Of a stretch of DNA of 64,000 nt, positions 19,744 to 58,891 are shown one piece after another. The stretch lies in assembly GCF_050920415.1 (NCBI RefSeq), contig NZ_CP169309.1. One strand, given 5' to 3'. The number at the start of each line of letters is the position of its first letter. Positions within the stretch are counted from its first letter, which is position 1. The translations under genes were made by a program, and so were the position numbers. Source of the DNA: Escherichia coli. GTDB lineage: Bacteria; Pseudomonadota; Gammaproteobacteria; Enterobacterales; Enterobacteriaceae. Below the pieces are notes generated by a model. That model saw only the letters and a program-made list of their open reading frames with translations. It made no database searches and was not told where the DNA came from.

Positions 19744-20754
19744 TTAGATATGGTTAACGATTTCTTTAATCAGCGGCGGTCCTTTAAAAATAAAACCAGA
19801 ATAAATTTGCACCAGTGAGGCCCCCGCAGCAATCTTTTCACGCGCAGCGATAACCGAGTCAATGCCGCCAACACCGATGATCGGTAAGCGACCGTTTAAT
19901 TCCTGAGACAAACGGCGAATAATTTCGGTGCTTTTTAACTGTAGCGGACGACCACTTAAGCCCCCAGTTTGATCGCAATTTTTCATACCCTGTACCAAAG
20001 AACGATCGAGCGTGGTATTGGTTGCAATAACGCCATCAATATTATGGCGAACTAAACTATCGGCAACCTGGATCAATTCTTCTTCAGAAAGATCCGGCGC
20101 GATCTTCACTGCGATCGGCACATATTTATGGTGCATCGCTTGCAAATCATTTTGCTTATTTTTAATCGCGGTTAAGAGATCATCCAGCGCTTCGCCATAT
20201 TGCAGTGTGCGTAGTCCTGGGGTATTCGGCGATGAAATATTGATGGCGATATATCCCGCATAAGCATAGATTTTTTCCATACAAATCAGATAGTCATCTT
20301 TACCCTGCTCCACCGGCGTATCTTTATTTTTGCCGATGTTAATACCCAGGACGCCATCATAATGGGCTTTTTTTACGTTCTCTACGAGGTTATCAACGCC
20401 AAGATTATTAAAGCCCATACGGTTGATCAAACCTTCGGCATCTACCAGACGAAAGAGACGCGGCTTGTCATTACCTGGCTGTGGACGTGGCGTGACGGTA
20501 CCGATCTCGATAGATCCAAACCCCATCGCGCCTAACGCGTCAATGCACTCCCCGTCTTTATCAAGACCGGCTGCCAGACCAAGCGGATTTTTAAACGTCA
20601 GGCCCATGCAGTTAACAGGTTTCGCAGGCACTTTCTGCCGCACCAGTGCTTCAAACGGCGTTCCTGTAATACGGCGTAATTGCTGAAAAGTAAACTCATG
20701 AGCGCGCTCTGGATCGAGCTGGAAAAGGGCTTTACGAACGAAGGGGTAGTACAT
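19744..20754 (-). CDS. pyrD: dihydroorotate dehydrogenase (quinone)
   Basis: 336 aa from [21 protein letters not shown]... Confidence 0.95.
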
Positions 20755-20839
20755 GAACTCTCCTGGATTCCCGGTGTGCAAACCGGGGGCGTATTATGTG
20801 CGAGTTCGGACCAAAAGGGAATTGACCTGCGGCAAAAAA

Positions 20840-20855
20840 AACGCAAACGTTTTCA
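20840..20855 (-). promoter_or_regulatory. PurR box upstream of pyrD
   Basis: aacgcaaacgttttca matches the PurR operator core ACGCAAACGTTTTC; lies about 90 bp upstream of the pyrD ATG. Confidence 0.6.
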
Positions 20856-20864
20856 GAACCTGTT

Positions 20865-21575
20865 TCAGGGCAGATCTTGCTCCTTCTTTGCACTCAAACC
20901 GCCGTAATCATTTATCGCCCGCCAGGCGACATGACACGGTGCTATTGCCTGACACCAGCTTGTCTGACGCTGGCTTTTAGGCGGTACAACTCCCGCATTA
21001 CTTAACGCTTTACCATTTACGCTCACCTGAATCAGGTTAATATAGTACGGCGTTGGGTTAGTGAGTTGCAAACCCTGCGAATTCCGTGACCAGCGTAATT
21101 GTTGATAAGCTTCCAGCGGGTCGCCCGGCAAACCTTCGGGTCGCCAGAACAGTTTAAATACCGAGCGCATCGCTACTTTTACGTTCTGATTTTCTACTTT
21201 GCCGGATGGCACGCTGGCAATGTTTAGTTCAAATAGCGTTTCGCGATCCACAGGCAACATGTCACTTTCCGTTCTCAGTAAGCGCAATGTGCCTGTAGTA
21301 CTTGGCTTCAGAAAAACAAGCGGCGGAGCGGCCAGTAATGGTACTGGCACTGTCGACGCTTCACCCCCGGCCCAACGAGTTGAGCGATTGATTTTACTGT
21401 TAATAAGCCAGGATTCCTGACTGGTATTAGTCAGTGAGATAGATATCGATTCTCTGTGTGCCGGGAAGATAAATCGCGTTCCTCCAACCACCACGCCAGC
21501 CTGCAGTTCACCCGCCACCAGCAGCGATAAAACGGCAAAAATAGAGAGCGTCAATCTGTTCCACGGATTAGTCAT
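20865..21575 (-). CDS. ycbF: putative periplasmic pilus chaperone YcbF
   Basis: PapD-like chaperone sequence; start uncertain (ATG at 21575 gives 236 aa, alternative ATG at 21602). Confidence 0.8.
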   Translation of the reverse strand: MTNPWNRLTLSIFAVLSLLVAGELQAGVVVGGTRFIFPAHRESISISLTNTSQESWLINSKINRSTRWAGGEASTVPVPLLAAPPLVFLKPSTTGTLRLLRTESDMLPVDRETLFELNIASVPSGKVENQNVKVAMRSVFKLFWRPEGLPGDPLEAYQQLRWSRNSQGLQLTNPTPYYINLIQVSVNGKALSNAGVVPPKSQRQTSWCQAIAPCHVAWRAINDYGGLSAKKEQDLP

Positions 21576-22086
21576 AATGAAGTACAAATGTCGCGCTGGC
21601 ATTTACTTTACCCGACTGCACATCGCTATTGACAGGTCGCAATTGCGCATAAAAAGTTAATGGCACCTTACCACTGTGTAAGATGTAGTCTTTACTCGCC
21701 TGGTTAAGCGGAATCAATATCTTCGCATCATCCAGAATCGCAATCGCTAACCCACTGGCGGTATCCGTACCACTTTCAATGGACAACATTTCGCTCTTCA
21801 TTCCGTCGGGTGTTCCTGAAAAAGTGACGTCAACGGTGCTGACATCTGTTCCGCAATCCTGCAAATTAATGATGAAAGATTTCTCCGGGCCATAATTCCC
21901 ATGAGAAAAACGTGTCAGTGAGACATCGCCTAACTGCACATTGCTTTGCTTGCTATCCTGTGCAAGCACGCATGTATTACGGCGAAACGATCCGCTGATG
22001 TTAACCGTGCCATCATGGGCAAACACCTCACAGCTCCCCATCCATCCCACCAGGCACAGAATCCAGATTATTCGTTTCAACGTCAC
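21568..22086 (-). CDS. ycbV: fimbrial-like protein YcbV
   Basis: about 172 aa with GTG start and signal peptide; fimbrial subunit-like. Confidence 0.8.
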   Translation of the reverse strand: MTLKRIIWILCLVGWMGSCEVFAHDGTVNISGSFRRNTCVLAQDSKQSNVQLGDVSLTRFSHGNYGPEKSFIINLQDCGTDVSTVDVTFSGTPDGMKSEMLSIESGTDTASGLAIAILDDAKILIPLNQASKDYILHSGKVPLTFYAQLRPVNSDVQSGKVNASATFVLHYD

Positions 22087-22089
22087 TCC

Positions 22090-22632
22090 TTACTGATAAA
22101 CCAGATCAAAATAGAGAACCGCCGTCGCATTACCGCCCGTTGCTCCCGCCTTAGTGGACTTATAACGAAGTTGATATTTGAGTGTGTTATCCCCCGCTTT
22201 TAAAGGTGTAAGAGGTTGGACCTGATTGAGCGGGATTTCTTGTTGACTTTGCGCATCAAGAATTTGCACAGCAATCCCCGTTGCCATACCACCACTTCCG
22301 TCTGTGTCAGTTAGTTTGAGTAGTGTCGGCGCAAGGGGGTCAGCCTCGCCGCTAAAAAGGACGTCCGCGCCAGCAATACCAGCGGCACAACCGGTGATAT
22401 CGATACTCAAATCAGCAGCAGTGCTTACGGTATTCGCGGTCTGAAAATCACTGATATTAAAATCACCAATATGAATATTTTGTAATGCGCTTTTGGTGGC
22501 GACATCACAGCCCTGATCGACCACATTACCATAAATATGCATACTGACTTGTTCAGGCCCAGCCATCCCTACATGGGTGTTAAGAAGGCTAAAGAACAAG
22601 ATAACGCACTGAGATATAGTTTTTTTCTTCAT
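22090..22632 (-). CDS. ycbU: fimbrial-like protein YcbU
   Basis: 180 aa with signal peptide; fimbrial subunit-like. Confidence 0.85.
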   Translation of the reverse strand: MKKKTISQCVILFFSLLNTHVGMAGPEQVSMHIYGNVVDQGCDVATKSALQNIHIGDFNISDFQTANTVSTAADLSIDITGCAAGIAGADVLFSGEADPLAPTLLKLTDTDGSGGMATGIAVQILDAQSQQEIPLNQVQPLTPLKAGDNTLKYQLRYKSTKAGATGGNATAVLYFDLVYQ

Positions 22633-22643
22633 ACGTTCACGCG

Positions 22644-26305
<3,662 letters not shown>

Positions 26306-26329
26306 CTCGCTCTCTTAACTGAAGACGGC

Positions 26330-27031
26330 TTACGATTTACAGTTGAGTTGCGGCGTTTCCGCCCCGTAGTCATTGATGGTTCGGTACGTTACGCGACTGT
26401 TTTGAGCACCCTTTGGCAGAGGGAATTGGTATTTATCAAATGGGGAGATCATTTGATTTTTAACTACTTTTCCACCTATTTTCAGGTCTGTCAGGGTAAT
26501 GAAATAAGGTGTTGGGTTACTGACCGTAACTATGTCAGCTGACGAAGTGCAACGCAGTTTCGCCGGAGCCTCGGCTAAGGGATACGCTAAACCTTTTGGT
26601 CGCCAGAAAAGTTTGATGACGCTTTGTGTGGCAATCTTCAGGGTATTGCCTTCTTCCCGCTTCGTTGTTGAAGGGACTGCCCGTACGCTGGTGAAGAAAA
26701 GAGTTTCTCTGTCTTTCGCCAATGGCGCACCAATGTACATAATGCGTAACAGATTCTCATTTGCCGGATTCAAGACAAATAGCGGTGGTGTTATAATAAA
26801 ATCCGCTGATTTTTTATTAACTGGTGTCATCACCCAAGACTGAATAAGATAAGAAACATCCGGACTGGTGTTACGTACACCAAGTGAAATTTGCTCTTCA
26901 CCTTCTGAATAAACAAGACGTGTTGCTGCAAGTCCAATCCCGCCTTTACCTGCCGCCCATGCGGATGAACAGCTAAGTAATATTGCTGTTAAACTTACGG
27001 TCACAATTCCCTTTGTTATGCAAGTTTTCAT
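26330..27031 (-). CDS. elfD: periplasmic fimbrial chaperone ElfD
   Basis: 233-aa PapD-like chaperone. Confidence 0.9.
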   Translation of the reverse strand: MKTCITKGIVTVSLTAILLSCSSAWAAGKGGIGLAATRLVYSEGEEQISLGVRNTSPDVSYLIQSWVMTPVNKKSADFIITPPLFVLNPANENLLRIMYIGAPLAKDRETLFFTSVRAVPSTTKREEGNTLKIATQSVIKLFWRPKGLAYPLAEAPAKLRCTSSADIVTVSNPTPYFITLTDLKIGGKVVKNQMISPFDKYQFPLPKGAQNSRVTYRTINDYGAETPQLNCKS

Positions 27032-27113
27032 ATATAGTCACTCTTAAAAAATATGAATGTCCCCTCCAGAACACTGGAGGGGGACTAATTAATAAAACAA
27101 TTAATGTTTTATA

Positions 27114-27653
27114 TTAATAATAGTTAATATGGAAGTTTGTTACCGCATTAACATTACCTGAAGTGGCTTTACCCGTAGCGATATAATCAACTTTAAAGGT
27201 CAACGTCTGATCTCCATTCTGCAACAAAATGTTCCCGGTTTCTGTGTCTGGCTTGATGGTCGTTGTGCCATCATTCATGTACATTTGCAGGGCCACGTTT
27301 GTAGCAGCATCAGAAGAGGCCTGATTAGCAAACGCTGTAATCTGCGTAGTATCCGCAGTGCCATTAAAGGTGAACGTTGCATTTTTTGTTACGGTAATAT
27401 CACAATCTGTTAATTCGATTGGCACATCAGTTTGTACCCCAGATACCTGGCCATTGCTTTGCAACTTCGTAGCACTAACATCTGGCAAAGTCACCACGGA
27501 ATCTTTCATCGCAGCTACCAGCGTACACGCTGGGGCAATGACTTTACCATTAAATGTTACTGAGCCATCCGTGATAGCATTATCATCAGCAGCCATAACA
27601 CTGGACGTTGCACATACCACAGTTATAAACGCCGTCAATACACTTTTTTTCAT
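27114..27653 (-). CDS. elfA: major fimbrial subunit ElfA
   Basis: 179 aa from MKKSVLTAFITVVCATSSVMA...; ends in a Tyr-rich C-terminus (HINYY). Confidence 0.85.
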   Translation of the reverse strand: MKKSVLTAFITVVCATSSVMAADDNAITDGSVTFNGKVIAPACTLVAAMKDSVVTLPDVSATKLQSNGQVSGVQTDVPIELTDCDITVTKNATFTFNGTADTTQITAFANQASSDAATNVALQMYMNDGTTTIKPDTETGNILLQNGDQTLTFKVDYIATGKATSGNVNAVTNFHINYY

Positions 27654-28008
27654 CGTTATCATCCTGATCTTTTCGTAAATATGATAATGCCTTTAAATGA
27701 CATTAGACTTAATAATAACAATAACTGTCCGCCATTTAAATCAAGCATACTTAATCCAATAAGTGACAAATCGTTAATTTATAGATTTCATGAATATATT
27801 CTTATTGCCTGAACGAGTAATTCATTGATTCAACATCGAATGAACATCCAATAAATAAATACACGTGATATATATCCCTCAATCCTTAGTTTATTTTTAG
27901 AAAAAGATACACAAATTTTATATTTGGCATTTTCTTGTCTTTCCGACAAACTGACAGAATTGTTATCAAAGTAAAGAATAAAAGAACAGTTGGTTATAAG
28001 GAGGGAGT
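27654..28008. promoter_or_regulatory. AT-rich divergent control region between elfA and ssuE
   Basis: about 355 bp that is visibly AT-rich with A/T tracts. Confidence 0.5.
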
Positions 28009-28584
28009 ATGCGTGTCATCACCCTGGCGGGGAGTCCTCGTTTTCCTTCTCGCTCCAGTTCTTTGCTGGAATATGCGCGGGAAAAACTGAATAACCTGGA
28101 TGTCGAGGTTTATCACTGGAATCTGCAAAACTTCGCCCCGGAGGATCTGCTCTATGCCCGTTTCGATAGTCCGGCCCTGAAAACTTTTACCGAACAGCTG
28201 CAACAGGCCGATGGGTTAATTGTCGCCACACCTGTGTATAAGGCCGCCTATTCCGGAGCGCTGAAAACCCTGCTCGATCTGCTGCCAGAACGTGCGTTGC
28301 AAGACAAAGTGGTACTGCCGCTGGCAACGGGCGGTACAGTGGCTCACCTTCTGGCGGTCGATTACGCGCTTAAACCGGTATTAAGCGCGCTGAAAGCCCA
28401 GGAGATCCTGCACGGCGTGTATGCCGATGACTCACAGGTGATTGATTACCAACATAAACCACAGTTCACGCCGAATCTACAAACCCGACTTGATGCCGCG
28501 CTCGACACCTTCTGGCAGGCGCTGCACCGCCGCGATGTCCAGGTTCCTGACCTTCTGTCTCTGCGAGGTAACGCCCATGCGTAA
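28009..28584 (+). CDS. ssuE: NAD(P)H-dependent FMN reductase SsuE
   Basis: 191 aa MRVITLAGSPRFPSRSSSLLEYAR...; SD aaggaggga upstream. Confidence 0.95.
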   Translation: MRVITLAGSPRFPSRSSSLLEYAREKLNNLDVEVYHWNLQNFAPEDLLYARFDSPALKTFTEQLQQADGLIVATPVYKAAYSGALKTLLDLLPERALQDKVVLPLATGGTVAHLLAVDYALKPVLSALKAQEILHGVYADDSQVIDYQHKPQFTPNLQTRLDAALDTFWQALHRRDVQVPDLLSLRGNAHA

Positions 28585-29536
28585 GATCATTAAACTGGCG
28601 CTGGCGGGATTGCTTAGCGTCTCTACACTCGCGATTGCCGCAGAGTCGTCTCCAGATGCGTTACGTATTGGCTATCAGAAAGGCAGTATTGGTATGGTGC
28701 TGGCAAAAAGCCACCAATTATTGGAAAAACGCTATCCGAAAACCCAAATCTCGTGGGTGGAGTTCCCCGCTGGGCCGCAAATGTTGGAAGCGTTAAACGT
28801 TGGCAGTATTGATCTCGGCAGTACGGGGGATATTCCGCCAATCTTTGCTCAGGCTGCCGGAGCTGATTTGCTGTACGTGGGCGTCGAACCGCCGAAGCCA
28901 AAAGCCGAAGTGATTCTGGTGGCAGAAAACAGTCCGATCAAAACCGTAGCCGATCTTAAAGGTCACAAAGTTGCCTTTCAGAAAGGTTCCAGCTCGCACA
29001 ATCTTTTACTACGCGCACTACGCCAGGCCGGGCTTAATTTCACGGATATCCAGCCCACTTACCTGACGCCTGCCGATGCCCGCGCCGCGTTCCAGCAAGG
29101 TAACGTCGACGCATGGGCTATCTGGGATCCCTACTACTCCGCTGCGTTATTACAGGGCGGCGTGCGGGTGCTGAAAGACGGCACCGATCTCAATCAAACT
29201 GGCTCGTTTTATCTGGCTGCCCATCCGTATGCAGAAAAAAACGGCGCATTTATTCAGGGTGTACTGGCAACCTTTAGTGAGGCCGATGCGTTAACCCGCA
29301 GCCAGCGCGAGCAAAGCATCGCTTTACTGGCAAAAACGATGGGCTTACCAACGCCGGTGATTGCCTCTTATTTAGATCATCGCCCCCCTACCACCATCAA
29401 ACCGGTTAACGCCGAGGTTGCCGCCTTACAGCAGCAAACGGCAGATCTGTTTTATGAAAACCGTCTGGTGCCGGAAAAAGTCGATATTCGCCAACGTATC
29501 TGGCAGCCCACTCAACTGGAAGGAAAACAATTATGA
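28577..29536 (+). CDS. ssuA: aliphatic sulfonate periplasmic binding protein SsuA
   Basis: 319 aa from [21 protein letters not shown]; ORF-track start at 28442 is an extension inside ssuE. Confidence 0.9.
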
Positions 29537-57146: not shown

Positions 57147-58891
57147 TGGCCAAACTGCATTTTGTGAAGTTGCGCGTAAACGCCACGGTGCTCAAGCAAA
57201 TCGTTATGCGTACCGCGTTCCACAATGACACCATCCTCGACGACCACGATTTCGTCTGCCTTTTCAATGGTAGACAAGCGGTGGGCAATCACCAGAGAGG
57301 TACGGTTTTTCTGCAACTCATCCAGTGCCGCCTGAATCGCACGTTCAGATTCGGTATCCAGCGCCGAGGTAGCTTCGTCCAGAATCAGAATCGGGCTATC
57401 ACGCAACAAGGCTCGAGCGATGGCAATACGCTGACGCTGACCGCCAGAGAGCAGCACGCCGTTTTCACCAATCACTGTATCGAGACCGTTATCCATCTTA
57501 TTGATGAAGTCCATGGCGTAGGCCATACGCGCCGCTTCTTCAATTTGCTCACGGCTGTACTGTTCTGTCCGTGCGTAAGCAATGTTGTTGGCAACCGTAT
57601 CGTTAAACAGATGGACATTCTGCGACACCAGAGCAACCTGGTTACGTAAAGACGCCAGGGTATACTCGCGCAGATCGTGACCATCCATCAGGATTTCGCC
57701 TTCATCAATATCGTAAAAACGTGTGATTAGGCTGGCGATGGTTGATTTACCTGAACCAGAGCGTCCAACCAGAGCAACCGTCTTCCCTGCCGGAATTTTC
57801 AGGTTGATGTTACGCAATGCGGGTACATCACGTCCCGGATAAGTAAAGGTGACATTGCGGAATTCTACGTCGCCAGTCGCACGCTCGATCACGCGCTTAC
57901 CTTCGTCTTTCTCCTGCTCACTGTCCAGAATGGTAAACAGCGTCTGACAAGCCGCCATACCGCGCTGGAACTGGGCGTTAACGTTGGTCAGCGATTTCAG
58001 CGGACGCATCAGTGCAATCATTGAAGAGAAAACAACGGTAATCGTACCGGCAGTCAGGCTATCCATGACGCTAGGGAAGCTCGCCGCATACAGAACAAAC
58101 GCCAGCGCTAAAGAGGCGATCAACTGAATGATCGGATCAGAGATGGAAGAGGCTGAAACCATTTTCATCCCCTGAAGACGCATTCGGTTACTGACTTTAT
58201 CGAAGCGTTTCGTTTCCACCTCCTGACCACCAAAAATCAATACTTCTTTGTGGCCCTTCAGCATTTGTTCTGCGCTGGTGGTCACCTGCCCCATGGTGTT
58301 CTGCATGTTTTTACTGATGTTGCGAAAACGCTTCGATACAACGCGAATCGCAATCGAAACAATCGGTGCCAGCACAATCAAAATGATCGACAGTTGCCAA
58401 CTGTAATAGAACATCATGATGAACAGGCCGATGATCGACGCACCTTCACGCACAACAGTAATCAGTGCGCCGGAAGAAGAAGAAGCAACCTGTTCGGAAT
58501 CGTAGGTGATACGTGACAACAGCGTACCCGTTGACTGTTTGTCAAAGAATGAAACTGGCATTCCCATCATGTGACCAAACAGGCGGCGACGCATGGTCAT
58601 TACCACCTTTCCTGATACCCAGGAGATACAGTAGCTGGAGACATAGCTGGTGATACCACGTAAAATCATCAGCCCGATCACCACCAGCGGCATCCACACC
58701 AGCACGGAGCGATCTGTTTTACCAAAGCCATCATCAAGAAGTGGCTTAAGGAGCGATAACATGAAGGTATCGCTGGCTGCGTTGAGGATTAACGCTACGC
58801 CCGCCACGATCAGACCCGCTTTAAAAGGCGCAATGGTTGGCCACAGTCGGCGGAACGTCTGCCACGTAGAGAGATCTTTGTCGTTATGCAT
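57143..58891 (-). CDS. msbA: lipid A / lipopolysaccharide flippase MsbA (ABC exporter)
   Basis: 582 aa with N-terminal transmembrane domain, Walker [10 protein letters not shown] and LSGGQRQR signature. Confidence 0.95.

Follow-up and report, generated by a model that had tools for sequence, protein, structure and literature searches.

pyrD, the gene for quinone-dependent dihydroorotate dehydrogenase, raises at this locus the question of whether a palindrome-like 16-mer a short distance upstream of it is an operator of the purine repressor PurR and, if so, how a repressor bound there would act on the promoter and what the allele carried by this strain would mean for binding. The locus lies in a 64-kb window of Escherichia coli DNA, the whole stretch that was analysed. 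A sequence-only reading of the window had recognised a PurR operator core at 20840–20855, upstream of pyrD. The match stands, with its coordinates shifted by one base to the canonical 16-mer at 20841–20856; the neighbouring gene was also named correctly, with the correction that the natural strand of both box and gene is the minus strand. On the plus strand, 20841–20854 reads acgcaaacgttttc and the full box, 20841–20856, reads ACGCAAACGTTTTCAG; on the pyrD strand the 16-bp operator (PUR box) reads CTGAAAACGTTTGCGT, with its central CpG at 20848–20849.

The pyrD ORF (19744–20754, minus strand, ATG at 20754) was identified from the RefSeq annotation of a strain with 100% identity, and its upstream neighbour is the fimbrial chaperone gene ycbF (ORF 21602–20865, minus strand). 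The box falls inside the 110-bp ycbF–pyrD intergenic region, 8 nt past the ycbF stop codon; its centre lies 94.5 bp upstream of the pyrD ATG, and 86 bases separate box and ATG. The ycbF–pyrD region is 100% identical to that of E. coli strain MFDS1022581, in which the RefSeq gene order is elfC-elfG-ycbU-ycbV-ycbF-pyrD-zapC, with ycbX on the other strand, and the 701 bp around the box were matched in 5,425 of 5,426 complete E. coli genomes.

We are confident that 20841–20856 is the PurR operator of the pyrD promoter and that it modestly lowers pyrD transcription when purines are plentiful. The site links the purine and pyrimidine pathways, in that excess purine slightly cuts the synthesis of dihydroorotate dehydrogenase, with consequences for nucleotide pool balance. 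Purine-repressor control of pyrD is already known and the idea is not new: in E. coli and Salmonella it goes back to 1990, and a genome-wide study confirmed it in 2011. The fresh points are small ones, namely the positional and orientational conservation of the box in most Enterobacteriaceae, the boundary of a fimbrial island that falls within it, the operator alleles of differing predicted strength and a rare G-to-T change in the window.

Motif strength and published PurR binding

A search of the window for the perfect palindrome ACGCAAACGTTTGCGT, allowing at most three mismatches, returned the pyrD box as its single match. The box agrees with the palindrome at 13 of 16 positions and fits 12 of the 14 specified positions of the published ChIP-derived motif ACGNAAACGTTTGCNT (PMC3159470). 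The PurR ChIP-chip motifs tabulated by Cho et al. 2011 (PMC3159470, Table 1), 27 of them once pyrD is set aside, were used to build a weight matrix. Motif scoring of this kind was a check that the sequence-only reading had proposed: the box scores 16.2 bits leave-one-out and is the best match in the window, while the 27 ChIP sites span 12.0–24.9 bits and six of them score below it. Its two halves are unequal, the right half-site ACGCAAAC being a perfect consensus PurR half-site (12.5 bits) and the left one poorer than in the strongly repressed pur genes. Two further matrix matches in the window were rejected: the next-best, at 57240–57255 (13.8 bits), overlaps long ORFs and lies near the maximum of 13.5 bits reached in the control segments described below, and another, at 19751–19766 (11.9 bits), lies inside pyrD and falls below that maximum.

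Taken alone, the motif match is not beyond chance in 64 kb. The three-mismatch search is expected to yield 0.59 matches per window of this size and gave at least one in 42 of 100 shuffles, and a score of 16.2 bits was reached in 90 of 300 random 64-kb sequences. What carries the case is thus where the box lies, what has been published on it and how well it is conserved.

As to location, the box of the window aligns base for base with the K-12 box (locus L002), at the same position, with one difference, at position 2. In K-12 MG1655, Table 1 of Cho et al. 2011 (PMC3159470) gives a PurR ChIP-chip peak at pyrD with the motif CGGAAAACGTTTGCGT at 1,003,889–1,003,904. This peak, seen only with added adenine, has a log2 enrichment of 1.01, which is among the weakest signals in the table. 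Cho et al. class pyrD both with the promoters characterised earlier and with the genes for which experiments had demonstrated direct repression by PurR. For pyrC and pyrD alike, PurR repression is described as weak in PMC6245113, with reference to Choi and Zalkin 1990 and Wilson and Turnbough 1990; according to this review, carAB P1 is repressed by PurR to an extent comparable with those two genes and far less than the purine genes are. The RegulonDB paper PMC3548332 cites Vial et al. 1993 for dual control of Salmonella pyrD by purines and pyrimidines. In an engineered purR pepA argR triple mutant pyrD expression was not raised (PMC4491880), a result which shows how small the effect of PurR on pyrD is and how readily pyrimidine control can mask it.

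The proposal that pyrD is under purine-repressor control is thus borne out by the K-12 ChIP-chip peak and the cited weak repression (PMC3159470, PMC6245113), together with conservation of the box in the Enterobacteriaceae. In vivo PurR occupancy, for the K-12 allele, and PurR-dependent repression were established by others, and the identity of the site with that of K-12, its conservation, its position and its orientation are the results of this analysis; for the effect size and the precise promoter map we depend on citations at second hand and on our own derivation. The repressor gene purR lies outside the window and is almost certainly carried by this strain, given that 5,424 of the 5,426 complete E. 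coli genomes have it.

Conservation of the box and the edge of the fimbrial island

pyrD starts were collected blind to the box, with a degenerate DNA pattern that encodes the N-terminal sequence MYYPFVRKA of PyrD, applied to a single genome of each species. The scan yielded 120 loci, mostly from Enterobacteriaceae, of which 115 had at least 250 nt of upstream sequence. A box of at least 14 bits is present in 106 of these 115 loci, always on the pyrD strand and with its centre 89–105 bp from the ATG, and all 526 control segments, cut to the same length from these loci, stay below that threshold (maximum 13.5 bits). Positions 5, 6, 8, 9 and 11–14 are invariant in all 106 boxes, and the outer positions vary as they do in the PurR sites of E. 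coli. To the left of the box the sequences of different genera cannot be aligned, and the core of the box is kept with either ssuE or a 7.1-kb fimbrial island upstream. On comparative grounds, this is the pattern that would be expected of a selected protein-binding site, and because the box is conserved in both place and orientation, the explanation by chance is removed.

The distance between box centre and ATG falls into two classes, of 93–94 bp (26 loci; Escherichia, Salmonella, Citrobacter and Kluyvera) and of 102–104 bp (73 loci; Klebsiella, Enterobacter, Kosakonia and others). The difference corresponds to an insertion of ∼10 bp, or about one helical turn, between the box and the T-run that follows it in Klebsiella, Enterobacter and their relatives. 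The two classes are compatible with a face-of-the-helix requirement and are only suggestive of one, because a single ancestral indel may account for them.

The box is not found at every pyrD locus. Eight loci with a conserved PyrD N-terminus have a best score below 8 bits within 250 nt (L028, L033, L053, L074, L099, L117, L120 and L123); the box-less loci include Erwinia persicina and Tenebrionibacter intestinalis, and L046 has only a degenerate box of 13.0 bits. Lineages without the box may have lost PurR control of pyrD or may never have had it. Enterobacterial-type pyrD starts also appeared in L058, a 260-bp contig of Alkalicoccobacillus porphyridii, and in L087, from Chryseobacterium sp. 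18061, where ssuE lies next to pyrD and the PurR box scores 19.8 bits; both are probably contaminating contigs in those assemblies.

In the window, the DNA upstream of the box belongs to the elfADCG-ycbUVF fimbrial island, a 7.1-kb segment (20855–27946, minus strand) that occupies the ancestral ssuE–pyrD intergenic region. The window becomes homologous to island-less E. coli again at 20854 on one side and at 27947 on the other, and the island replaces 75 bp of island-less sequence. Its pyrD-side end therefore falls between box positions 2 and 3, so that the left half-site has its two outermost bases on the island side. The island is missing from ∼1,350 of 5,425 E. coli genomes, about a quarter, in which ssuE lies divergently upstream of pyrD. 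Among the pyrD loci with a recognisable upstream neighbour this neighbour is ssuE in 89 of 90, and by this distribution the ssuE–pyrD arrangement is the ancestral one.

The operator occurs in E. coli as alleles of different predicted strength. Island-less E. coli and E. albertii have the box AAGAAAACGTTTGCTA (14.5 bits), most island-bearing strains have CGGAAAACGTTTGCGT (20.8 bits) and the window has CTGAAAACGTTTGCGT (16.1 bits). The island may in this way have created an allelic series and, if affinity differs along with predicted score, its acquisition could have retuned the purine control of pyrD in a lineage-dependent manner, a possibility that we put forward only tentatively and regard as doubtful.

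Two observations bear on the history of the island itself. In Pseudocitrobacter (L018, P. faecalis, and also L031) a ycbF-like chaperone gene with 52.7% identity lies directly upstream of pyrD, ∼113 nt away in L018, and the junction at the box, ATGAAAACGTTTGCGTTTTTTTT, with the flank GCGTTTTTTTT, is the same as in island-bearing E. coli. This suggests that Pseudocitrobacter and E. coli have the island and its junction in common, whether by descent or by transfer. The two flanks of the island in the window have also diverged unequally from island-less E. coli: the ssuE flank is 89.9% identical (window 27947–28870 compared with 2002–2925 of L003), and the pyrD flank 98.5%, which hints at a history of recombination.

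Promoter anatomy and the likely mode of repression

A sigma-70 scan of 20600–21100 detected no strong consensus promoter. The pyrD promoter was placed from the conserved hexamer CATAAT and from the published description of the start sites (PMC6524683); all of its elements are on the minus strand. The −10 hexamer CATAAT (20793–20798) is invariant or nearly so across species, and a weak −35 hexamer, TTCCCT (20821–20816), was assigned by a 17-bp spacing from it. This putative −35 element is contained in a conserved block, GCAGGTCAATTCCCTTT (20813–20829), in which 107 distinct enterobacterial sequences agree at 90% identity or more and which is separated from the −10 hexamer by a variable spacer. 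The block is conserved far beyond the need of a 3-of-6 match to the −35 hexamer, and it may bind some further factor or represent a promoter element of unusual type. On its upstream side, a run of T residues directly follows the box (20834–20840, approximately −54 to −48 from the inferred start; T8 if the last base of the box is included). Like the core of the box, it is at least 90% conserved in the same set of 107 distinct sequences and is possibly an A/T tract resembling an UP element. Downstream of the −10 hexamer, ACGCCCCCGG and the leader are almost invariant from 20792 down to the ATG at 20754.

For pyrC and pyrD, transcripts have been described to start with a C, 6–7 nt after the Pribnow box, when CTP/GTP is high, and, under low CTP, at a G two bases further on; with the additional C residues a 5' hairpin can form, which limits translation (PMC6524683). 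Applied to the window, this description gives alternative starts within 20784–20787 (minus strand), at C 20787 or 20786 at high CTP and at G 20784 at low CTP/GTP. The corresponding hairpin, CCCGG-N8-CCGGG, occupies 20770–20787 on the minus strand. RNAs that begin at a C fold a hairpin of 5–6 bp at their extreme 5' end (−13.9 and −10.8 kcal/mol), and the RNA that begins at G is without the 5' hairpin (−6.7 kcal/mol, centroid −3.1). The predicted folds support a start-site-dependent hairpin as described in PMC6524683.

The same region is recognised by the Rfam model PyrD_leader (RF02373), which matches the leader/control region of pyrD at 20749–20822 (minus strand) over its full length, 1–74, with 97.9 bits against a gathering score of 47. 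The match reaches ∼35 nt upstream of the inferred starts at 20784–20787 and, if these starts hold, the 5' part of the Rfam model is promoter DNA, from −35 to −10, rather than RNA. Weak, sub-threshold Rfam matches to RmaA and SNORA57 were dismissed as chance.

With +1 at 20786, the PurR box would extend from approximately −70 to −55, with its centre at −62.5, upstream of the −35 element; these positions derive from the published starts. PurR sites generally lie between −35 and −10 (Cho et al., PMC3159470). When purines are plentiful, hypoxanthine or guanine would bind PurR, and the PurR dimer would then bind the imperfect palindrome at 20841–20856 and modestly lower pyrD transcription. Because the box is upstream of the −35 element and not between −35 and −10, PurR bound there would probably not exclude RNA polymerase outright. 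It would more likely hamper upstream contacts, whether of the alpha-subunit C-terminal domain or of an UP-element-like kind, or bend the DNA unfavourably beside the T-run. Repressors are known to act by competing for alpha-CTD contacts upstream (PMC6524683), and such a mode may apply to pyrD. The upstream position of the box fits the modest published effect. The purine input would be layered on the main control of pyrD, in which CTP/GTP-sensitive choice of start site determines whether the leader carries the 5' hairpin, and with it whether translation is limited.

The rare position-2 allele, competing explanations and known systems

Position 2 of the box (20855, minus strand) is T in the window, whereas K-12 and almost every other E. 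coli with the island have G there. The exact 73-nt segment with the T allele is common to no more than 3 of 5,408 E. coli genomes, and none of the other 27 ChIP sites of E. coli has T at this position. For the change from G to T, the full matrix predicts a cost of 4.6 bits (20.8–20.9 to 16.1–16.2 bits) and a pooled half-site matrix a cost of 1.8 bits. Position 2 carries 0.69 bits of information, and T occurs there in 4 of 54 pooled half-sites and in 4 of the 106 orthologous pyrD boxes, for example in ATGAAAACGTTTGCGT from Pseudocitrobacter. Judged by these scores, the T allele would be expected to bind PurR somewhat more weakly than the K-12 allele without loss of the site, and we infer that the G-to-T variant of the window retains PurR binding. 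A decayed operator, in which the same change has largely removed PurR control of pyrD from this strain, would be consistent with the rarity of the variant, with the missing T among the ChIP sites and the full-matrix cost, and with a K-12 site that is itself already weakly occupied. We consider it unlikely. The low information content of position 2, the recurrence of T in half-sites and orthologues and the smaller pooled cost argue against it, as does the fact that the boxes of island-less E. coli and of the Salmonella type score the same or lower (14.5–16.7 bits). Purine control of Salmonella pyrD has moreover been reported (Vial et al. 1993, cited in PMC3548332).

Explanations without PurR as the main binding protein are much less probable still. 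LacI-family operators share a central CG with A/T arms, and RbsR, the closest paralogue of PurR, is reported to touch purine genes, so that the box might be bound chiefly by another repressor of this family with a AAACGTTT-centred operator, RbsR for example. That reading is very improbable given a ChIP signal that is specific for tagged PurR and adenine-dependent (PMC3159470) and a right half-site that is perfect for PurR, although such a protein might bind in addition to PurR. The palindrome and T-run could instead serve mainly as an intrinsic terminator of the elf-ycbF fimbrial operon, since the sense strand reads AAAACG-UUUG-CGUUUU followed by more U, starting 8 nt after the ycbF stop codon; yet the hairpin has only two G-C pairs and −4.1 kcal/mol (centroid), it folds no better than shuffled sequence (z = 0.4, with 124 of 200 shuffles folding at least as well), and the box is equally conserved in the 89 loci with divergent ssuE, where there is nothing to terminate. 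A terminator scan gave no match on the minus strand, and a Rho-independent terminator of ycbF was rejected for want of a stable G+C-rich hairpin; we give this role very little weight. Least credible of all is that an AT-rich, palindrome-like 16-mer resembles the PurR consensus by chance and has no function. The shuffled and random sequences above show how readily a match of this quality arises in 64 kb, but they do not account for its coincidence with the K-12 site bound by PurR in vivo, for its fixed place and orientation across species against an empty control set, or for a core that is invariant where the neighbouring sequence varies or has been replaced by the island. A PurR operator of the pyrD promoter thus remains the preferred reading.

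The closest known system is the pyrD operator of K-12, which has the same locus, orientation and distance from the ATG (94.5 bp to the centre), 15 of 16 bases in common and an identical downstream promoter and leader; it differs in having G at position 2, where the T of the window is a rare allele. The strongly repressed pur genes (purF, purT, purHD, purL and others) have the same 16-bp palindromic motif with a central CpG. Their operators, however, generally lie between −35 and −10 (PMC3159470), whereas the pyrD box is, by our placement, upstream of −35, and the published effect at pyrD is weak. A further parallel is the PUR box of carAB P1 (centre −128.5; PMC6245113), likewise an upstream box at a pyrimidine-pathway promoter with weak purine-specific repression, although the effect of PurR at carAB needs PepA and a higher-order nucleoprotein complex, unlike anything known for pyrD. 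The start-switching leader of pyrC and pyrD (RF02373) adjoins the box on its downstream side and belongs to the same regulatory region, where it provides a separate, pyrimidine-sensing mechanism that acts on translation.
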